DNA of 64,000 bases from an uncultured Lachnospiraceae bacterium (GTDB taxonomy: Bacteria > Bacillota > Clostridia > Oscillospirales > CAG-272). Both the position numbers and the translations under genes were made by a program. The DNA is taken from the NCBI GenBank assembly GCA_964525525.1, contig CAZGHD010000001.1:5288-69287 (forward strand), read 5' to 3'. Shown here piece after piece: positions 2,832 through 42,267 of this stretch (position 1 is the stretch's first letter; the number at the start of each line of letters is the position of its first letter). The notes under the pieces are model-generated. The model had not been told where the DNA came from. It saw nothing but the letters and a program-made list of their open reading frames with translations, and did not search any database.

Positions 2832-4298
2832 ATGAGAAAAGCCGGGATTTTAATGCATGTCAGCTCACTTCCGTCACCGTACGGGATAGGAACGCTCGGA
2901 AAAACTGCTCACGAGTTTGCGGAGTTTTTACACAGGGCGGGCTTTTCTCTGTGGCAGATATTGCCGATAGGACCGACGGGGTATGGAGATTCGCCGTATC
3001 AGTCCTTTTCTTCGCACGCAGGAAATCCGTATTTTATAGACCCTGACAGACTTGTGGCGGACGGACTTCTCACCCACTCGGAGTGCGCGGGTTTTAATTT
3101 TGGACGCACCTCCGACTCAGTGGATTACGGTGCTCTTTATGAAAACAGATTCAAGCTTTTGAAGCTTGCCGCGCCGAGATTTTTCTCAGCTGAGCCCGAG
3201 TCGTTTTCCGCGTTTTGTGAAAATAACTCAAACTGGCTTGACGATTACGCGCTGTTTTCTGTTATCAAAGAGAAAAACGGTCAAAAGCCTTGGCAGGAAT
3301 GGGAAGAACCGCTCAAAAACCGCGATGACAAGGCACTGACTCGTACGGAGGAGGAGTATGCGGACGACATAAGATTTTATAAAATGCTCCAGTACCTTTT
3401 CTATTCGCAGTGGAAAGACCTGCGTGACCACTGCCGCGCGCTCGGAATATCAATTATAGGCGACCTTCCGATATACGCCGCGGCTGACAGCGCGGACACT
3501 TGGGCGCACCCCGAGTATTTTTCGTTTGACGAGTCGCTGTCTCAGACGCTTGCGGCGGGATGCCCGCCTGACAGCTTTTCAAAGGACGGACAGTACTGGG
3601 GCAACCCTACCTACGATTGGGACGCTATACGTGCGGACGGGTACAGATTTTGGATAGACCGTCTGTCCACCGCGTTGTCTACCTTTGATTACGTTCGAAT
3701 AGATCATTTTCGCGCGTTTGACGAGTATTACGCGATACCCGCAAATTCCCATCCCGCGGACGGTAGCTGGATGCGCGGCCCGGGACGTGAATTTTTCGAT
3801 TTTATGCGCGCGGAGTTTGACGACCTGCCGATAATCGCGGAGGATCTCGGATTTATAACCGATTCGGTGCGGGATCTTCTGAGATACACCGATTTCCCCG
3901 GCATGAGGGTGCTTCAGTTCGGGTTTTACGATGGAGCCGAGGAACATCTGCCGTATAACTACCCGTCAAACAGCGTGGCGTACACCGGTACTCACGATAA
4001 CGCGACGTTAAAAGAGTTTTTTGATACCCTTTCGGACAGGGAGAGGGAGTTTGCGTACTCTTATTTTGATGCAAAAGACCCCGATGCGGCAACTGCGCGC
4101 GCCGTAAGAGATATTATCGCGTCTCCTTCCTGCTTTGCCGTTGTTCCGATGCAGGATATTCTTTCTCTCGGCGGCGAGGCGAGGATGAACACCCCGTCTG
4201 TTGCATCCGGCAACTGGCGGTGGCGGATGACGCATATCCCTGACGCGGTGACGGAAAAGAGGCTGTCAGATATGTGCCGTGTTTACGGCAGGCGGTGA
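2832..4298 (+). CDS. malQ: 4-alpha-glucanotransferase (amylomaltase, GH77)
   Basis: N-terminus AGILMHVSSLPSPYGIGTLG, plus DHFRAF and IAEDLG catalytic-region motifs typical of MalQ. RBS is AGGAGAAACAAAATG. Confidence 0.9.
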   Translation: MRKAGILMHVSSLPSPYGIGTLGKTAHEFAEFLHRAGFSLWQILPIGPTGYGDSPYQSFSSHAGNPYFIDPDRLVADGLLTHSECAGFNFGRTSDSVDYGALYENRFKLLKLAAPRFFSAEPESFSAFCENNSNWLDDYALFSVIKEKNGQKPWQEWEEPLKNRDDKALTRTEEEYADDIRFYKMLQYLFYSQWKDLRDHCRALGISIIGDLPIYAAADSADTWAHPEYFSFDESLSQTLAAGCPPDSFSKDGQYWGNPTYDWDAIRADGYRFWIDRLSTALSTFDYVRIDHFRAFDEYYAIPANSHPADGSWMRGPGREFFDFMRAEFDDLPIIAEDLGFITDSVRDLLRYTDFPGMRVLQFGFYDGAEEHLPYNYPSNSVAYTGTHDNATLKEFFDTLSDREREFAYSYFDAKDPDAATARAVRDIIASPSCFAVVPMQDILSLGGEARMNTPSVASGNWRWRMTHIPDAVTEKRLSDMCRVYGRR

Positions 4299-4388
4299 AC
4301 GTTTTCTCAAAATTTGACAATCCTTTCTTTTTATGATATAATCTGTGGGATAGAAATGAAAGGATAGGCTTTAGCCGACGACCGTTTT

Positions 4389-5894
4389 ATGAAGAATAAA
4401 AGCTTTGTCCGAAGCTTGGCACTTCTCATCATTCTTGCCTCGATTTTGCAATCAGTCAGCTTCGAGATTTTCGCGTCCGCGCCGACTATCGGCTCTGACG
4501 TCTCGGATATATCACAGGACAGTATTACCGAAAGTCTTCGCCCGAGCGAGGGCATTTACCGTATCAGAAACGCAAAAACGTCTGCGTATCTGACCGCATC
4601 TGACAGCGTTTGCACCCTTTCAGAATACTCGGAGGACGGGTATCAGATATTCGTTTTGAAAAAATTGTCTTCCGCTATATTTTCTCTCGTGCAGGAAAGC
4701 GGCGGCGGTGCTCTTGCCGTATCCGAGTCCTATGCCGTAATGTCTGACACTACGGACACAAACTGCAGACTTCTCATTACCCGTCAGGATGACGGAAGTT
4801 ACAGGATCTCTCCCGCCGGCGAGGGACTTACAGACTTGTCGCTTACCGCGGCGGAAAGCCTCGGATTCAGTGAATATACAGGCGACTCAAGTCAGAAGTG
4901 GTATCTTGAGAGCATACCGATCTCGTCAATATCTTTTGACCGAGAGGAGCTTACCCTGACGGTTGGCAGAAGTGCCTCTCTCAAGATCTCTACCTATCCC
5001 GCATCTACCGATGCGGAGATAGCCTTCGTTTCAAGTGACACGGAGGTAGCGGTAGTTAATGAAAACGGTATCGTTACCGCGCAGAAAAACGGTACCGCGG
5101 TTATAACCGCGATATACGGAGAATTGCGCGCCGAGTGTGTTCTTACCGTATCGGAGATCAAAGCGGAGACCTTTTACAGCCAGCACAACATAACTCAAGG
5201 CGGTGGATGGGACGGTTCACAGCTTACTTCACTTAGATTTTCCGGCAAGTATTTTGCAAAAGATTATTTCACGGGCACGTCCGACTGGATGGACGAGGGG
5301 TGCAATACCTGCAGCTTTGCTATGATCCTCAAAAATCTCGGTGCTACTCTTGATGAAGGTTACGATTTCCGCACGGGGAAAACCGACGATCTTGAGCCTG
5401 ACCCGTACACGGTCGCGCTCGCAAATTCGGGCAATCACGGAGCTACCGGGAAATACGACAGACTCTGGGGTAATCCCGTTGCGATAGATATGCCTAAGCT
5501 GCTGTCAAGATTTTCTGTCGGCGGTTCTCCCGTTGCCGCTACCGTAAAGCGCGGTGCTATTACCAGAAAACAGATAAAAGAAGCGCTTGACGAGCATCCC
5601 GAGGGCGTTATCGTAGAGGTTTACTTATCCGAGGAATATCGCCACTTTCTCGTGTTTACCGAGTGCATAAACCCGGACGACGATCCGAGATATTACGACT
5701 TTATCGTGTGCGATCCCTCCGCGTTCGAGCGCGGACTCGGAGACCACGTTCCGTTTACGCAGAGTACGTCCTATCTTACCATAGGATACCGTTACAGTAA
5801 CATAGTAAGCCTGCGCTGGATAAACGTACTGTCCTCTTTTGATTACTCGGGCAGTCTGCGCCAAAATAAAATATCAGACTCGCGTCTTAAATAA
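4389..5894 (+). CDS. Secreted multidomain protein: signal peptide, ricin-type lectin-like region (QKWYLE), Big_2-like Ig domain, C-terminal Cys/His peptidase-like domain
   Basis: Hydrophobic N-terminus. Big_2-like stretch LTLTVGRSASLKIS..NGIVTAQKNGTAVITA. Motif DEGCNTCSFAMIL followed by YRHFLVF resembles C39-like cysteine peptidase folds. Domain calls are from memory of the families. Confidence 0.55.
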   Translation: MKNKSFVRSLALLIILASILQSVSFEIFASAPTIGSDVSDISQDSITESLRPSEGIYRIRNAKTSAYLTASDSVCTLSEYSEDGYQIFVLKKLSSAIFSLVQESGGGALAVSESYAVMSDTTDTNCRLLITRQDDGSYRISPAGEGLTDLSLTAAESLGFSEYTGDSSQKWYLESIPISSISFDREELTLTVGRSASLKISTYPASTDAEIAFVSSDTEVAVVNENGIVTAQKNGTAVITAIYGELRAECVLTVSEIKAETFYSQHNITQGGGWDGSQLTSLRFSGKYFAKDYFTGTSDWMDEGCNTCSFAMILKNLGATLDEGYDFRTGKTDDLEPDPYTVALANSGNHGATGKYDRLWGNPVAIDMPKLLSRFSVGGSPVAATVKRGAITRKQIKEALDEHPEGVIVEVYLSEEYRHFLVFTECINPDDDPRYYDFIVCDPSAFERGLGDHVPFTQSTSYLTIGYRYSNIVSLRWINVLSSFDYSGSLRQNKISDSRLK

Positions 5895-16291: not shown

Positions 16292-17644
16292 TTATTTACA
16301 GATTATTTCGCCGATGCTTCCGGCGGCGGTGGACGGCATATCGTCAAACAGGTGATCGAAAACGATCTCTCTGACGTACGGGGTAACGTCAGAGACACGC
16401 TCTCCGTTTACCGTAATGCCCTCGAAATACACTTTCTCGGTGTGAGATGAGAAATACGGGTCAAATATCTGCATATCCCCGTCGCGCACAGATTTCGGTC
16501 CTATGCACATAAGGTATGAGTAGGGATATTCGTCACGGTGGAGAATAAGGTCAATGTTCTTAAAATATATGTTCTTTGCGTTAAGTCCCAGCTCAAACGC
16601 GGCAATACTGCCGGCAATAGGATCGCTCTCAAGATACTCTCGCAGGAGATCTACAGGTCTGTTCAGGTCTACCTTTATGTCTTCGAAAATGATGTTGTTT
16701 CCGCTTCCGACCGAGACCTTTTCCGGCTTCTCGCCTACGCGGTATGCGGGGGCCTGGCAGTAGAGCTTGAAGGTGCTGACGTTCTCGATCCTTCTGAATA
16801 TGGCGTCCTCTATATAGCAGTCAACCTCACTGCCGTCGTCGTAAGTATAGATGCCCGGCTGGATTCTGATAGCGGGATAACCTTTGGTGAGGAAAAGATC
16901 CTCGCAGATTACCGTCTTTGCGGGGCCGAAGTTGACAGACGAGTTCTGCCAGTCAAACATATTGAAAGCTACAAGATCGTCCCCGACCTCGCCGCGGATA
17001 TTCTTGACGAACACGTTTTCCACGTTTCCGTTTATGTGCAGACCGTCCGCAAAGCAGGTGTCAAAAATTATGTTTTGCATATTAAGGTCGGTCGCGTCTC
17101 CGCACTGAACGGCAAATCCCGCGCAGTTTTTGAAGGTCATGTTCTTTAAGGTCAGGTGATCCATGTTATCAAAGAAGAACAGGGTGGAAACACCGAAAAA
17201 ACTGCGATCCTCGTCGTACATTCCGCTCTTACCGTAGCCGAGTCGGGTGGTCTGGCAGTCTGCCCAGATACCGCCTTCTATCGTGATGTTAGCATCTCTT
17301 ACGTCCGAGACTATCGGCGCGTGGGTTCCATCGTAGGTGTGCTCGTTACGGAACATAATGACTTTAGTGCTGTCAGCGAGGCGGATAAGTGCATCCTTGT
17401 CCGCAATTATTCGACGGTTTGAGGGAATAACAACCGTTCTGTCAATGAGGTAAGGCGTTTCTTTTGCGGGAATTATTACTACCTCGTGCTCGCGCAGAGC
17501 CGCTTCAAGCGCCTCCGTCCATATATCGCCGTTTGGCGCGTAGTCGGTCAGTTTAACTTCGTGTGAGAGCGTCTGAGCGAGTTTTTCGTTTCTTTTTATC
17601 ATGTCAGAGAGGGTTGATTCGATCTGCTTTTTGATGTTTTCCAT
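16292..17644 (-). CDS. Right-handed beta-helix (pectate-lyase-superfamily / GH28-like) protein, cytoplasmic
   Basis: N-terminal LTDYAPNGDIWTEALEAAL is like the Pectate_lyase_3 start. Repetitive N/G/D-rich coil pattern. No signal peptide. Confidence 0.55.
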   Translation of the reverse strand: MENIKKQIESTLSDMIKRNEKLAQTLSHEVKLTDYAPNGDIWTEALEAALREHEVVIIPAKETPYLIDRTVVIPSNRRIIADKDALIRLADSTKVIMFRNEHTYDGTHAPIVSDVRDANITIEGGIWADCQTTRLGYGKSGMYDEDRSFFGVSTLFFFDNMDHLTLKNMTFKNCAGFAVQCGDATDLNMQNIIFDTCFADGLHINGNVENVFVKNIRGEVGDDLVAFNMFDWQNSSVNFGPAKTVICEDLFLTKGYPAIRIQPGIYTYDDGSEVDCYIEDAIFRRIENVSTFKLYCQAPAYRVGEKPEKVSVGSGNNIIFEDIKVDLNRPVDLLREYLESDPIAGSIAAFELGLNAKNIYFKNIDLILHRDEYPYSYLMCIGPKSVRDGDMQIFDPYFSSHTEKVYFEGITVNGERVSDVTPYVREIVFDHLFDDMPSTAAGSIGEIICK

Positions 17645-17722
17645 AGCAATCTCCGATCGTATATTTTAATAAGCTTCACCGACGATTATAACACAACGCA
17701 CCGTCTCTGTCAAGAATAAGAA

Positions 17723-17749
17723 AAGGCTTTCTTTAGTAAAGAAAACCTT
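17723..17749 (-). terminator. Intrinsic terminator after the serpin gene
   Basis: Imperfect 12-bp hairpin AAGGCTTTCTTTA/TAAAGAAAACCTT, followed on the minus strand by a T-rich tract. Confidence 0.5.
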
Positions 17750-17764
17750 GATTCTATATTTTTG

Positions 17765-19024
17765 TCAGCCTATCTCTGTTACTGCGCCGATAAATATCGG
17801 GAGGGAGGTTGCGTTATCCACTATCGCATAAACGAACGGGCGGTCCAGCACTACTCTTTTTGTCTCTGCCATGGCGCCGTCCCGCATCTCCACTATGGTA
17901 GCCGCGCCTGCGCGGGTGCCGAGCTCATCAACCGAGATAAAAGTTTTGTGACGCACGTCGCCTATAAAGATGTTACCGCGGGAGGAACTGCCGAGCTTTG
18001 TGAAGTCAGCCGCGTTTCCGTCAAATGCGGTGGGCATTCCGAGGTCTTTGAGGATGTCACAGAGCGAAATGTCATAGTCGTATGAAAACTTTGGCAGGGA
18101 GGCGGAAAGATACGAATGTTCGGCGTTTTGAATAAGAGAAATAAACTTGTCGCCGTCAAGATTTTTGATATAGTCGTATATGTCAATTCCTTCGTTTGGT
18201 AAGAACGCTGCAAAGCTGTATTTACCGCCTTCGTAGTTCTTTATAAAACCAGTAGTTTGATCGTCGTGAATGTATGTTGATTCACCTGAGGTCATCATTT
18301 TTACTTTCTGCTTTTCGCCGTTATACGCAGTAAACGTTCCGTTTTGAATATCGTTTTTCTCGTACGTTTTCTGCCACTCGGCGTCAAACGTTACCGCGTT
18401 GATAAGATACATTACCGCGTATTCGTCTATTTCGTCAAGGATCTTATCTATCATTCCGTCGGTGTTGTTTTTTACCCAGTTGTTTATATCCTTTAAGGTC
18501 TGACGGTCAAACGGAGCTTTATACGCGTCGGCAGAGTAGTAGTCCGCATTTTTTTGAAGGAACTCTTTTTCTACCGTGAGTCTGTTCTCGTCATCACGGA
18601 ACCATATCGAGTTTGCTATCTCGAGCTTGTATTTTTCTTCACTGGGTAGATTTTTTACGTAGGAGTGAAGATATTCGTTCAGCTCTCCTATCGTTTTTTC
18701 GCCGCCGAGCAGGGCTTCCATTTCTTGCTTTGTCTGACCGTCTGCTCCGTTTGCCGTCATGGCGAGGGCGAGGATAACCGACAGAGGAGACACGAGCAGA
18801 CTTTCGGTTTCTCCGTTTGCTTTGCTTTCCGCGGCAGACGCTTTGAAAAGTTCTAAATACAGCTTTGCCTGCTGTGAAATGAAGTCACTGTCTGCAGCTT
18901 TTTCGGTGACGTTTTCGGGAGTTATGCCCTCCATCAGGTCAGCTGCTTGAACCTTGGTGCATCCGACGAGGTTAAGCGGCATTACAAGCGCGAGTAAAAG
19001 GCAGATCAACGTGATCGGTTTCAT
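17765..19024 (-). CDS. Serpin (serine protease inhibitor), lipoprotein
   Basis: Lipobox LVGC. Serpin blocks SPLSVILALAMTANGADGQT and NWV..T.G.I. Hinge/RCL region DELGTRAGAATIVEMRDGA..LDRPF. Confidence 0.85.
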   Translation of the reverse strand: MKPITLICLLLALVMPLNLVGCTKVQAADLMEGITPENVTEKAADSDFISQQAKLYLELFKASAAESKANGETESLLVSPLSVILALAMTANGADGQTKQEMEALLGGEKTIGELNEYLHSYVKNLPSEEKYKLEIANSIWFRDDENRLTVEKEFLQKNADYYSADAYKAPFDRQTLKDINNWVKNNTDGMIDKILDEIDEYAVMYLINAVTFDAEWQKTYEKNDIQNGTFTAYNGEKQKVKMMTSGESTYIHDDQTTGFIKNYEGGKYSFAAFLPNEGIDIYDYIKNLDGDKFISLIQNAEHSYLSASLPKFSYDYDISLCDILKDLGMPTAFDGNAADFTKLGSSSRGNIFIGDVRHKTFISVDELGTRAGAATIVEMRDGAMAETKRVVLDRPFVYAIVDNATSLPIFIGAVTEIG

Positions 19025-19040
19025 TGTTTTTCCTCCTTGA

Positions 19041-20063
19041 TTAGAATATTCCGGGGATAAGATGCGAGATCATAAGTCCGCCTGCAAAGGAAACGGTGTT
19101 TGCCACGAGAGCGTACAGCACGGTGATACCGCGATTTATCCTCTTGCGGCTGAATTTTTGCATAAATCTGAAGTACAGCACCGCCTCTACTGCAAAGACT
19201 ATTATTTCAAAAAGAATATAGCTTAGAACAAACGCAAGCTCTCCGCTTTGATAATTTATAACGTTGAGAAGTACGTTGAGCAGTACCTGCGTTACGGCGT
19301 TTACGCATACGATAAAGACGAGCTGTTTTCGCGTGACATATCCGAACATCAGCGCTATAAGTATCTCTATTGCGAGGGTGAGCAGTATGCGCGAGACGAG
19401 CGATATGATCTCAAGGGTGAAGTCGTAGTCCTTTTTCACCGTGAGCTGCTCCGACTCGGTCGGCTGTACGTTCAGAGTGACGTCTGCACTTTCGGATTCA
19501 GGCGGAGCAGTGTCGGGCGTGTCTGTTGTTTCAGACGAGGTAGTTTCGGTAGTGTCTGCGGAGTTTGAAACGCTTGACAGATCGGTCAGGCTGAGGTCAA
19601 CGCTGAAATAACTGTCAAACGCGTATCTCTCGCATACTCCGCTTGAGACAAATTTTCCGCTCTCGGGAAAGTAGAGCAGAATTTTGAATTTCTGCGGAGG
19701 GTAGTAGGTCCAGTTTATCTGCCCGGTTTCGCTTACCTTCCAGCCTTCCTGTAGAAAATAAAATCCGTCGGGATCCTCATACTCTGCGAACGCTTTCCAC
19801 GTCTTGTAGTCGAGAGAGGAATATGAGTAATGCTCATTTTCATTATGTCGGGCGTTTTCTTCTTTGCCGTCCCACACGGTGGCAGGCCCAGTTGATTCTT
19901 TGTACGAGAGCAGGGTGCCCCAGCACTCACCGTCATCGAGGTGCTGAAATTTTACAACGACCGACGGCTTGGGGCCTGTATCGGCACTCGCAGTGACAGA
20001 AAGCGCGGAAATAAAGAGTGATACGATGATTATAAAAGCAAGTGTTTTACGCATATCTACCAC
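19041..20063 (-). CDS. Membrane protein: signal peptide, extracytoplasmic domain, T/S/E-rich linker, C-terminal multi-TM block
   Basis: Read from the translation. The gene lies between the anti-sigma-like gene and the serpin gene, with gaps of 7 and 16 nt. Confidence 0.55.
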   Translation of the reverse strand: MVDMRKTLAFIIIVSLFISALSVTASADTGPKPSVVVKFQHLDDGECWGTLLSYKESTGPATVWDGKEENARHNENEHYSYSSLDYKTWKAFAEYEDPDGFYFLQEGWKVSETGQINWTYYPPQKFKILLYFPESGKFVSSGVCERYAFDSYFSVDLSLTDLSSVSNSADTTETTSSETTDTPDTAPPESESADVTLNVQPTESEQLTVKKDYDFTLEIISLVSRILLTLAIEILIALMFGYVTRKQLVFIVCVNAVTQVLLNVLLNVINYQSGELAFVLSYILFEIIVFAVEAVLYFRFMQKFSRKRINRGITVLYALVANTVSFAGGLMISHLIPGIF

Positions 20064-20070
20064 CTCTGTA

Positions 20071-20763
20071 TCAGTATTTTTTGATTCCGAGCGTTTCTTT
20101 TAGCAGCTCAAACTGTTCCTCGTTTATAGGATATGATTTACCGTTTGCCAGAAATATGATGCTGTTTTTGGTGACCGCGTATCTCCATTCAAGCCCGAAG
20201 TTAGTGGTCAGTACTACCTTGAAGTCGTATTTCGGAATAGTGGTGTGCGGTATTTGAACGACGTTACCGTCAAAACCGTAGATGGTTGCCTCTCCGTTCG
20301 TAAACTCGTCTATCAGGTTTACTGTTTCTGTTATTTCATTTGTGTCACGATGGACGGATACCGTTCCGTTCGGTGCGTACACCTCAAACTGCACATAGCG
20401 TATGCCTGAGCTTGAGGGTACTTCGTCTTTGCCGTCACCGTCAGTGTCTGGAGCTACTGCAGGAGCGCCGGTTTCTCCGGCGGCATCGCTGTCGTTACCG
20501 TCCGTTTTTTCTCCCTCGGGTTGTCTGAGCGTCTCTCCTATCTCCTGGTCAAACGAGCCGTCGTCGCCTCTTATAGCCCCGGGCGGTGCGCTGTCGTGCG
20601 ACGGACGCATCACTACGTTAAAATACGCTCCCGCGAAAAACGTGCACAAAACTATGGGGGTAACTATAACGGCAATATTTGTTTTTATCTTTCTTTTTCT
20701 CTCTTTTATGCGCTCCTCGCTTCGGCGGTATACCTCCGCTCGGCGCTCATCGAAATTTCTCAT
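20071..20763 (-). CDS. Putative anti-sigma factor (single-pass membrane protein)
   Basis: Short basic cytoplasmic N-terminus, one TM (IAVIVTPIVLCTFFAGAYF), then an extracytoplasmic domain. Its start overlaps the sigma gene stop as ATGA. Confidence 0.5.
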   Translation of the reverse strand: MRNFDERRAEVYRRSEERIKERKRKIKTNIAVIVTPIVLCTFFAGAYFNVVMRPSHDSAPPGAIRGDDGSFDQEIGETLRQPEGEKTDGNDSDAAGETGAPAVAPDTDGDGKDEVPSSSGIRYVQFEVYAPNGTVSVHRDTNEITETVNLIDEFTNGEATIYGFDGNVVQIPHTTIPKYDFKVVLTTNFGLEWRYAVTKNSIIFLANGKSYPINEEQFELLKETLGIKKY

Positions 20764-21311
20764 ATAAGCACCTCTCCCCTTTCTTTCAGTGCGGCGCGAA
20801 GGGTGTTTTTGGCTCGATAAAGAAGATTGTCTATCTGTTTTGCGTTCTTTTGCATGACCTTTGCCGCTTCTTCGTAGGAAAGCTCCTCAAAGTAAACGAG
20901 ATGCACTGCAACTCGCATATCCTCGGGCAGGTCTCTGATCGCTGAATTTATCTCGCGCTTTCTCTCGTCGGAAAGTACCGTCTCCTCGGGAGATTTGCCA
21001 TCGTCCGTCAGGTCTTCGCTTTCCGAGAGGTCGGACACCGCCGTTCTTTTGCGGTGCTTTATATAATTCAGTGCTCTGCTTCTGCCTATCATAAACAGAT
21101 AGGTTTTCAGCGACACTTTGAAATTATACCTCGACCTATGTACCAAAAGATCGGAAAACGTGTCTATCGCGATGTCCTCCGACGCATAAATATCTCCGAC
21201 GTATCGGTCAATAAAAAATATAAGCGCGTCAAAATATTCTTCCATTATCGAGTCAAAAGCACTTTCGTCACCGTCAAGAAAACGGCGGTAGCTACTTGCA
21301 CCGTTCTCCAT
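20760..21311 (-). CDS. ECF-type sigma-70 family RNA polymerase sigma factor
   Basis: 183 aa. Region 2 (..DIAIDTFSDLL..YLFMIGRSRALNYIK) and region 4 HTH (LSYEEAAKVMQKNAKQIDNLLYRAKNTLR). Confidence 0.85.
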   Translation of the reverse strand: MENGASSYRRFLDGDESAFDSIMEEYFDALIFFIDRYVGDIYASEDIAIDTFSDLLVHRSRYNFKVSLKTYLFMIGRSRALNYIKHRKRTAVSDLSESEDLTDDGKSPEETVLSDERKREINSAIRDLPEDMRVAVHLVYFEELSYEEAAKVMQKNAKQIDNLLYRAKNTLRAALKERGEVLI

Positions 21312-21511
21312 CTTCAGTCTCCTTTATGTTTTTGAAGGAATTTACCCCTTTCACTTATTTATACAACCGAAAATCTTAAATTCCTTATATTTTTTTGAAT
21401 TTTTTTCAAAAATATCCCGTACGGCTATGATACCACAACAGCTATCCCTTGTCAATATGCAAAGCCGTTACCCGATGTGCCATAATATTACAAATAAAAT
21501 AAGGTATAATA

Positions 21512-21540
21512 TTGACAAGAGGGGCTTCTTGGTGTATAAT
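21512..21540 (+). promoter_or_regulatory. Consensus sigma-A promoter for marR-fakB-fakA
   Basis: TTGACA (21512-21517), a 17-nt spacer ending in TG, then TATAAT (21535-21540). Confidence 0.7.
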
Positions 21541-21549
21541 AATACTCAG

Positions 21550-21567
21550 ATGTTGCATTTGCAACAT
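21550..21567. promoter_or_regulatory. Perfect 8+8 palindrome, candidate MarR operator
   Basis: ATGTTGCA-TT-TGCAACAT, 10 nt downstream of the -10 element and 38 nt upstream of the marR start. Confidence 0.5.
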
Positions 21568-21604
21568 TTATGATTTTACCTTTAACGATTTAAGGAGCGA
21601 TCTG

Positions 21605-22063
21605 ATGGTCAACAGATTCGAGCGGTTTTCGTCAGCCATATCGGAGATACATAAATGCTGGCATAAGCTCGCCGCGGAAGAAATGGAGAAATGCGGTCTC
21701 AAGGGGCCTCACGCATTCTATCTTGCAACGCTGTACCGATTTGAGGACGGTTTGACGGCGACTCAGCTTTCCGACCTTTGCGGAAAAGATAAGTCAGACG
21801 TTTCCCGCACTGTCGCTTCAATGGAGCAGTACGGTCTCGTGATAAAAGAGTGTAACAGTAACAATAATTACCGCGCAAAAATAAAGCTCACCGAATACGG
21901 CATGGAATGCGCGGAACACGTCCGTAAATTAGCAAGCGCGGCGGTGGAAATGGCAGGCGGAGAAATTTCTGACGATAAGCGCGCCATATTCTACGAAACG
22001 CTTGAGCTGATTGCGGATAATCTTAAATTTATAAGCGAACAGGGGCTTCCGCCCGTAAAATAA
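21605..22063 (+). CDS. MarR-family transcriptional regulator
   Basis: Winged-HTH pattern (LTATQLSDLCGKDKSDVSRTVASMEQYGLV). Start set at the ATG at 21605 after RBS AAGGAG. The longer ORF starting at 21512 would cover the promoter. Confidence 0.85.
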   Translation: MVNRFERFSSAISEIHKCWHKLAAEEMEKCGLKGPHAFYLATLYRFEDGLTATQLSDLCGKDKSDVSRTVASMEQYGLVIKECNSNNNYRAKIKLTEYGMECAEHVRKLASAAVEMAGGEISDDKRAIFYETLELIADNLKFISEQGLPPVK

Positions 22064-38440: not shown

Positions 38441-38529
38441 CTTGCATTTCCTTTCTTTTGCTTTTCCGTCCTACGGAGCGGTCTTTTTGGGGCTTTCACT
38501 TATAAGACTCGGAAAATGAGTAAAAGGTT
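38434..38529. repeat. Direct repeat copy 1: promoter, leader and start codon of the sigma-fusion gene
   Basis: Positions 38484-38529 are identical over 46 nt to 42222-42267. Similarity continues to TTGTCAT (38434-40 = 42195-201), which includes the start codon. Copy 1 has a 22-nt extra segment. Confidence 0.9.
38501..38529 (-). promoter_or_regulatory. Candidate promoter inside repeat copy 1
   Basis: Minus strand reads AACC-N15-GAGTCTTATAAG. The repeat begins exactly at AAC. Whether this is an ECF-type (AAC..GTC) or sigma-A-type (TATAAG) promoter cannot be decided by eye. Confidence 0.35.
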
Positions 38530-42201: not shown

Positions 42202-42267
42202 CTTACATTTCCTTTTTTGCGTTTTTGGGGCTTTCACTTATAAGACTCGGAAAATGAGTAAAAGGTT
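42195..42267. repeat. Direct repeat copy 2, upstream of the ABC exporter operon
   Basis: See copy 1. Identical 46-mer plus a conserved block containing the start codon. Confidence 0.9.
42240..42267 (-). promoter_or_regulatory. Candidate promoter inside repeat copy 2
   Basis: Same AACC-N15-GAGTCTTATAAG sequence as in copy 1, placed just downstream of the relQ-like gene terminator. Confidence 0.35.

Follow-up and report, generated by a model that had tools for sequence, protein, structure and literature searches.

The serpin gene described here is the last of four genes on the minus strand of a 64,000-nucleotide stretch of DNA from an uncultured Lachnospiraceae bacterium (the window; positions 5,288 to 69,287 of contig CAZGHD010000001.1, GenBank assembly GCA_964525525.1), and the first of the four encodes an extracytoplasmic function (ECF) sigma factor. 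Taken together, the anatomy of the operon, its promoter and the recurrence of the same gene order in related genomes make control of the serpin by the ECF sigma factor very likely, and comparison in this way supports what the original prediction had proposed from the letters of the window. The fuller account, in which a self-activating ECF operon puts out the product of its third gene (gene 3) and a membrane-anchored inhibitory serpin and is governed by feedback that a protease triggers, is held with less assurance, somewhat on the favorable side of even. Feature coordinates are collected in Table 1.

Conservation of the sigma-serpin linkage was examined from the serpin side and from the sigma side. 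The serpin has thousands of metagenomic homologues, and three that were looked up (62-71% identity) all lie in the order sigma, anti-sigma, one or two genes, serpin, within three different genomic flanks. Among 79 species-representative serpin loci, 57 had at least 2.5 kb of upstream sequence and were evaluable; an ECF sigma gene was located upstream on the same strand in at least 23 of these (17 with a close homologue of the window sigma factor, 5 with a divergent ECF-like gene, and locus L083, whose sigma factor is an ECF sigma by Pfam). An even sample of 301 genomes from the same order, spanning 153 genera, was then used to count both genes: the serpin is present in 136 genomes (45%) and 81 genera, and a sigma homologue in 68 genomes, so that the expectation of sporadic serpins in bacteria fails in this order. 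By our reading of the table of matches, about 22 of the 43 sigma matches with E<1e-43 in these genomes lie no more than 3 kb upstream of a same-strand serpin, against about 0.2 expected at random. Gene order was confirmed in the fetched regions of sigma-homologue loci, and the recurrent arrangement is sigma, anti-sigma, zero to two further genes and serpin, in differing flanks. The linkage, whose conservation had been put forward as a check on the prediction, thus occurs far above chance. Two-component genes beside serpins that have no sigma gene, an arrangement like that of Bifidobacterium, were not found among the serpin loci examined.

A second module of the same kind is present in the same genome, on contig C184 (G000:C184:11-2525; L001). 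It encodes a sigma factor of 183 aa with 67% identity to that of the window, an anti-sigma protein of 230 aa that is similar only over the first 71 residues and has a different ectodomain, and a lipoprotein serpin with 48% identity and a different reactive loop. The contig is 2.6 kb long and begins at the sigma gene, so its promoter was not assembled.

To define the promoter, regions 5' of the sigma genes in related loci were aligned, yielding the consensus ATAAGGAATTT-N-CAGTYGTATAATAAGTGAAAGGG from 35 unique sites, which was used for pattern searches with one mismatch allowed per half and for a position weight matrix (PWM). The promoter TAAGGAAT-N15/16-YGTATAA precedes the sigma gene in 40 of the 58 evaluable loci of the sigma clade, most often about 70-78 nt (overall range about 20-125 nt) ahead of the called sigma open reading frame (ORF) or slightly inside it, and is usually the sole match within a locus of 7-13 kb (chance expectation about 0.006 per locus by our own estimate). 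The site in the window has the top PWM score of the whole 2.27-Mb genome (34.2), followed by a site on contig C50 (32.5) and a third at 23.1, and the leader that separates it from the sigma ATG is about 40 nt long. These results support a clade-specific, predicted autoregulatory ECF promoter before the sigma gene. The sigma-70-type site sits 40 nt further upstream, and the same arrangement of the two promoters is visible in L003, a relative with an 84%-identical sigma factor; this site would provide basal transcription of the operon, so that the ECF sigma factor need not be the only route to its expression. Most simply, the two sites would give a single transcript of all four genes, made at a basal level and raised by ECF-driven positive feedback.

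The leader was also considered as a structured RNA, which was ruled out: the hairpin of the window leader is no better than shuffles (z=0.42), and there is no Rfam match in 17000-22000. The conserved leader element AAGTGAAAGGG is better read as initial transcribed sequence. Separately, the initial transcribed sequence at 21348-21358, ATAAGTGAAAG and then a run of G or C, is common to leaders at 38493-38503 and 42231-42241 on the minus strand, which belong to a locus with a giant ECF sigma fusion and to the copy of its promoter. The -35 element of the promoters of that locus is CAACCTTT, unlike the TAAGGAAT of the window operon; the -10 and start regions are related, and since the -35 elements differ, sigma-4 specificity probably differs as well.

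Reading of the junctions confirmed the layout first described, of tightly packed minus-strand genes ending at a terminator. The start codon of the anti-sigma gene overlaps the sigma stop codon in the sequence ATGA, and GGGGAGAGG lies upstream. Between the anti-sigma gene and gene 3 there are 7 nt with the GTG start of gene 3 or 16 nt with its ATG start, and this gap carries the ribosome-binding site GAGGTGG; the homologues and this ribosome-binding site favor the ATG at 20054 over the GTG at 20063. A further 16 nt separate gene 3 from the serpin gene, with the ribosome-binding site AAGGAGG 7 nt before the serpin ATG. The terminator-like hairpin has a folding energy of -15.8 kcal/mol (z = -3.83 against shuffles), and the layout supports the reading that the four genes behave as a single operon with a terminator only after the serpin. 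A serpin linked to the sigma gene in position only, transcribed from an unrecognized promoter inside gene 3 and regulated apart from the sigma factor, is very improbable on this layout: the gaps of 16 nt and 7-16 nt, each with its ribosome-binding site, are too small for a promoter, there is no promoter-like site on the minus strand within genes 2 and 3, gene order and strand are kept across dozens of loci despite variable inserts, and in-frame fusions of serpin and anti-sigma exist (see below). What speaks for such a promoter is that the scans covered sigma-70 sites and one ECF motif only and that many serpins of the order stand alone beside housekeeping genes. Within that coverage, the sigma-70 scan left the minus strand from 21244 to 17765 without a match, and the pattern search and PWM scan returned no copy of the ECF motif before gene 3 or the serpin gene, so the separate serpin promoter that would have spoken against the prediction was not found by any of the three.

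Table 1. Coordinates of the operon, its promoters and the motifs of its serpin (positions in the window), with the loci that carry fused forms
Feature	Position	Strand	Description
Sigma-70-type promoter-like site, TTGACA-17-TATCAT with TG extension	21427-21455	(-)	11/12 matches
ECF-type promoter, TAAGGAAT-N15-TGTATAA	21359-21387	(-)	Upstream of sigma gene; followed by initial transcribed sequence ATAAGTGAAAGGGG
ECF sigma gene	20760-21311	(-)	ORF of 183 aa
Anti-sigma gene (predicted)	20071-20763	(-)	ORF of 230 aa
Gene 3	19041-20054	(-)	337 aa from ATG; GTG at 20063 gives 340 aa
Serpin gene	17765-19024	(-)	ORF of 419 aa
Cys22 codon of lipobox L-V-G-C	18959-18961	(-)	Putative lipid anchor; read from sequence MKPITLICLLLALVMPLNLVGC
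VQAADLMEG, counterpart of tengpin N-terminal clamp VQAANLMDR (L41/M42)	18926-18952	(-)	Residues 25-33; by alignment to 2PEE
Hinge and reactive-center loop, E-L-G-T-R-A-G-A-A-T-IVEM-RDGAMAETKR-VVLDRPF	17834-17926	(-)	Residues 367-397
Intrinsic-terminator-like hairpin with U-rich tail	17723-17749	(-)	16 nt past serpin stop
Fusion loci L048, L037, L095, L097, L098, L104 and L058			Anti-sigma N-terminal profile match

Past the operon terminator, the next gene has its own promoter, a perfect TTGACA-17-TATAAT with TG extension at 17685-17713 (-). The gene under this promoter (16292-17644, minus strand) encodes a 450-aa beta-helix protein with weak GH28 similarity, and is followed by a gene for an Abhydrolase_7/AXE1-like esterase.

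The sigma factor consists of sigma-2 and sigma-4 domains only (Pfam Sigma70_r2 at residues 24-90 and Sigma70_r4_2 at 119-171) and scores 92.5 bits against the NCBIfam model TIGR02937 sigma70-ECF, which has a cut-off of 42.9; by these domains it is an ECF (group IV) factor, and its length of 183 aa lies in the range of about 180-200 aa typical of the group. Its closest solved relatives are the sigma factors of 8z6g and 6in7, SigW (5wuq) and RpoE (1or7). Factors of the SigW and RpoE types are set free by regulated intramembrane proteolysis, and a gene for an M50 site-2 protease is present in the genome (G000:C6, E=6e-61).

Neither of the two middle proteins, the predicted anti-sigma and the product of gene 3, has a Pfam or NCBIfam match. 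The predicted anti-sigma passes the membrane once: a conserved N-terminal helix, MRNFDERRAEVYRRSEERIKERKRK, runs into the transmembrane (TM) helix, and in the AlphaFold2 (AF2) model the two form one continuous helix over residues 4-51 with a predicted local distance difference test score (pLDDT) above 90. An acidic, disordered tether of about 70 residues follows (57-118 mostly at pLDDT <50, namely 57-70, 79-81 and 86-118) and leads to a small alpha/beta ectodomain at 121-228, with pLDDT mostly about 90 and a block at 161-170 of 58. Only the first 45-75 residues are common to the proteins that follow the sigma factor in related loci. The assignment as anti-sigma is a prediction that fits the position of the gene, the ATGA coupling, the N-terminal helix with TM segment, and the co-occurrence in dozens of loci. 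Class I anti-sigma domains have four helices in about 80 residues and in many cases bind zinc through an HxxxCxxC motif. A domain of this class (ASD/ZAS, e.g. zf-HC2) was considered for the window protein and rejected, as there is no family match, the cytoplasmic part has about 27 residues and a His/Cys motif is missing. Short class II anti-sigma domains are known from CnrY and NepR; as in these, a short helical peptide, here the modeled helix 4-51, would suffice to hold an ECF sigma factor, although sequence similarity of CnrY and NepR to the window protein is not detectable. The ectodomain of the anti-sigma (gene at 20071-20430 for this part) has a sole structural neighbor, 2MCT, a nuclear magnetic resonance structure of an uncharacterised Ruminococcus gnavus protein (probability 0.92, TM-score 0.59 on the target).

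The serpin matches PF00079 with E=4.4e-86 over profile positions 3-369 of 370 and aligns with tengpin (2PEE/2VH4/2PEF) over residues 25-416 with E=7e-122; by sequence it is of the tengpin-like inhibitory type and predicted to be made as a lipoprotein. The lipobox, the hinge GTRAGAAT (residues 369-376) and a reactive loop containing Met and Arg can all be read as originally described. The lipobox ends the signal peptide and follows the pattern [LVI][ASTVI][GAS]C, and the hinge agrees with the inhibitory consensus of Gly at P15, Thr or Ser at P14 and small residues at P12-P9, which permit insertion of the loop. Among 119 serpins of the clade, 63 have a lipobox, and in 58 of these 63 its Cys lies 4-6 residues (typically 5) before the clamp motif A-x-D-L-M. 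In 110 relatives, hinge residues G369, T370, A372, A374 and T376 are kept at 96-100% and the L-D-R-P-F motif is nearly invariant, and residues 381-390 form the most variable 10-residue block of the serpin (2.99 bits against a mean of 1.62). The reactive loop of the window serpin, EMRDGAMAETKR, contains two Met and two Arg. As a separate observation, tandem tengpin-like serpins occur in many genomes (L012, L017, L021, L030, L073, L098, L105 and others) with nearly identical scaffolds and differing reactive loops, which suggests diversified targets.

Tengpin, from Thermoanaerobacter (Caldanaerobacter) tengcongensis (PDB 2PEE, 2PEF and 2VH4), shares with the window serpin the VQAA(D/N)LM segment, the hinge and a hydrophobic region before the clamp; it differs in that the window serpin has a clear lipobox where the first 31 residues of tengpin are uncharacterised, and in the reactive loop, which in the window serpin has one residue fewer and a sequence unrelated to that of tengpin. 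The N-terminal segment of tengpin (L41, M42) covers a hydrophobic patch and traps the metastable native state; with this clamp the protein inhibits leucocyte elastase at a stoichiometry of inhibition (SI) of 2.1, and without it the protein goes latent and does not inhibit (PMC1905895). The clamp binds the native state only and governs the conformational switch (PMC1905895). By analogy with tengpin, the window serpin may form a covalent inhibitory complex with a protease that is stable to sodium dodecyl sulfate (SDS). As the closest characterised relative comes from a hot-spring thermophile, host elastase is no more than one of the possible targets.

In some related loci the serpin is fused in frame to the anti-sigma. 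The fused ORFs follow the sigma gene with a 4-nt overlap, encode about 450-480 aa, and consist of the anti-sigma motif MRxxxExxAEVFRRSExRI and a TM helix, the rest being serpin; a profile of 51 free anti-sigma N-termini matches seven serpin ORFs with E of 7.5e-19 to 5e-4. The clearest case is the fusion of L048, which can be compared with separate proteins of L028, whose sigma factor is 89% identical to that of L048: residues 1-46 of the fusion are 78% identical to the L028 anti-sigma, and residues 23-448 are 75% identical to the L028 lipoprotein serpin. Most fused serpins retain an inhibitory-type hinge, and in L098 a free lipoprotein serpin comes after the fused one. On a sigma tree from a quick search, in which 28 of 57 inner branches are unsupported, split, fused and non-serpin loci are interspersed; 19 changes are required overall, and the branches supported at 95 or above require two or more for the fused state. 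The arrangement has probably changed repeatedly. The window operon is the split version: its anti-sigma is a separate protein that has an ectodomain, its serpin is a lipoprotein, and it encodes an additional membrane protein. Loci in which the serpin is built into the anti-sigma make protease attack more plausible as the trigger.

In the fusions the anti-sigma TM helix is followed at once by the tengpin-type clamp, and they are the point at which a role of the serpin as part of the sensor has to be weighed. In such a role the serpin would bind and shield the anti-sigma ectodomain or tether, and its consumption by a protease, with the change from the stressed to the relaxed form and displacement of the clamp, would expose the anti-sigma to degradation; fused forms would work likewise. 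The clamp position, the binding of the tengpin clamp to the native state only, and the short distance from lipobox Cys to clamp, by which the serpin body would be held at the membrane near the anti-sigma, are consistent with this, as are several interconversions of the split and fused states on the partly unsupported sigma tree (at least two being forced). We consider it improbable, as contact between serpin and anti-sigma is without evidence here and the window anti-sigma has a folded ectodomain of its own, of a type common in serpin-free loci.

Gene 3 encodes a protein with a signal peptide, a beta-rich exodomain, a T/S/E-rich linker and four TM helices. The exodomain is strongly conserved and begins AD(T/M)GPKPSV, and the AF2 model shows a signal helix, the beta-rich domain, a disordered linker at 163-201 (pLDDT <50) and four long C-terminal helices. 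The family has 2852 homologues, none with a Pfam domain; its alignment shows invariant E/N/Q/R residues in the TM helices and no conserved His, and a PDB fold search gave no match. PrsW/CPBP-type proteases carry EExxxR, FxxxH and HxxxN/D motifs in their TM helices; gene 3 was considered as a membrane (site-1) protease of this type and rejected on the same grounds, namely no Pfam match, no conserved His and no PDB fold match. Gene 3 is single-copy in this genome. Members of its family are regularly the third gene, behind an ECF sigma and a short anti-sigma, and form that gene of serpin-free sigma/anti-sigma/X modules in L127, L128, L129 and L110, and in L069 a gene 3 homologue lies downstream of the serpin. 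Since modules with gene 3 exist without a serpin, gene 3 is a partner of the signaling pair rather than a serpin accessory.

Several results weigh against a dedicated protease-responsive serpin switch. About 60% of the serpin loci have no sigma gene, their serpins standing alone beside housekeeping genes. About half of the close sigma homologues precede other uncharacterised secreted proteins and no serpin; the sigma clade is therefore not serpin-specific, and it may respond to a signal other than a protease. On the cytoplasmic side the anti-sigma has no more than about 27 residues, which match no known anti-sigma domain in Pfam or NCBIfam. Anti-sigma ectodomains differ between near-identical sigma factors (87-89% identity): L047 (3200-3892) has the C184 type and L028 (4299-5006) another, with sigma factors 87% identical. 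The L028 ectodomain moreover shares 45% identity with part of the L007 cargo protein that contains Big_14 (2905-4674), and in some loci the sensor therefore appears to carry a copy of a cargo domain. Such swapping would fit ligand-specific sensors as well as it fits generic bait. The C50 promoter match lies about 40 nt upstream of a gene for an FAD amine-oxidase-like oxidoreductase (G000:C50:5134-9275, same genome), which is followed by one for a 538-aa polytopic membrane protein with a weak DUF6541 match; this hints at a broader envelope regulon, of which the C50 genes are candidate members. P1 of the serpin is ambiguous from its sequence, counting from the hinge giving Gly383/Ala384 and counting from the P-F motif giving Met385. 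Finally, co-transcription and sigma dependence are predictions from the sequence.

These points bear most directly on a different reading of the signal, in which the operon is a generic envelope or surface-remodeling ECF system that responds to another cue (cell-wall damage, bile, a glycan or a peptide ligand) and the serpin is one interchangeable protective cargo. The cargo of the clade speaks for it, being something other than a serpin in 18 of 63 sigma-clade loci (one dockerin protein and weak DUF3221 matches by Pfam, besides secreted proteins of unknown kind); these genes give no clue to what the signal is. Further points in its favor are the gene 3 family, which accompanies sigma/anti-sigma pairs that have no serpin, the second-best promoter match of the genome, which precedes envelope-type genes, and the commonest ectodomain type, a conserved small fold like 2MCT that could be a ligand-binding module. 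It leaves unexplained that a serpin has repeatedly replaced the anti-sigma ectodomain and that serpins far outnumber any other cargo that can be identified, and ectodomain swaps between sigma factors of 87-89% identity would be odd for a dedicated ligand sensor. We regard it as possible, well short of even. Protease attack as the signal is itself somewhat short of even, and is favored because the serpin is the commonest identifiable cargo, because a serpin can replace the ectodomain, and because ectodomains are otherwise freely exchangeable.

If protease attack is the signal, the operon could work as follows. The weak housekeeping promoter would maintain basal levels of the four proteins, and the short N-terminal helix of the anti-sigma would hold the sigma factor at the membrane. 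An extracytoplasmic event, most likely cleavage by a serine protease of the disordered tether of about 70 residues or of the ectodomain, would strip the outer part of the anti-sigma, and the M50 site-2 protease would then cut the remaining stub. The freed sigma factor would transcribe its own operon from TAAGGAAT-N15-TGTATAA. The serpin, lipid-anchored via Cys22 and kept native by the tengpin-type clamp, would accumulate on the cell surface and trap the protease, which would spare newly made anti-sigma and turn the response off, closing a negative feedback loop. Given its different ectodomain and reactive loop, the C184 module may be a parallel channel for another protease.

A closer coupling can be proposed tentatively, and we hold it to be rather doubtful: serpin and anti-sigma would be two halves of one protease-sensing circuit, in which the capture of a protease, with its switch from the stressed to the relaxed form, or a cut in the tether would be relayed through the membrane and release the sigma factor. 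The ectodomain would then be exchangeable for a serpin, and the clamp, which binds the native state only, would become the membrane-adjacent segment. In the window, the two halves would be a disordered bait tether on the anti-sigma and a lipoprotein serpin as effector, the loop would be self-limiting and measure unopposed protease activity at the surface, and the two modules of the genome would be tuned to different proteases.

Among known ECF pairs, SigW-RsiW (PrsW, RasP), RpoE-RseA (DegS, RseP) and SigV-RsiV (whose anti-sigma is a lysozyme receptor) are released by regulated intramembrane proteolysis. The window system resembles them in its two-domain sigma factor, the single-pass anti-sigma in the same operon, the predicted autoregulatory promoter and the site-2 protease in the genome, and resembles SigV in that the output would counter the presumed stress, as sigma-V induces lysozyme resistance. 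It differs in the short cytoplasmic part of its anti-sigma, with about 27 residues and without a known domain, and in its output, here a suicide protease inhibitor, which in relatives is itself the ectodomain. A site-1 protease for the window anti-sigma was not identified in this analysis.

Serpins of gut Firmicutes are under study in inflammatory bowel disease for their inhibition of elastase-like host proteases, but when these bacteria produce them is, to our knowledge, hardly known. For the regulation of a bacterial serpin we found one precedent, Bifidobacterium breve UCC2003, for which PMC8201313, citing Alvarez-Martin et al. 2012, describes a protease-inducible serpin operon controlled by a two-component system. 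As far as that description goes, both are gut bacteria with a serpin gene under a dedicated membrane signaling system with autoregulation; B. breve belongs to a different phylum and uses a histidine kinase and response regulator rather than an ECF sigma/anti-sigma pair. In full-text literature searches no description of an ECF-serpin or anti-sigma-serpin link was found, in keeping with the absence of any such report from what the original prediction could recall. Both components, the sigma/anti-sigma pair of ECF type and the tengpin-like serpin, are of kinds already known. If true, a conserved ECF switch before tengpin-like serpins would be a second and much more widespread regulatory logic, with about 40% of evaluable serpin loci being sigma-linked, and would offer a defined promoter usable as a reporter. 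The natural fusions would provide a testable idea for how protease attack may be sensed via a suicide inhibitor, with the split form of the window as a useful natural counterpart, and the membrane-adjacent position of the clamp would give a possible physiological context for the N-terminal clamp of tengpin.

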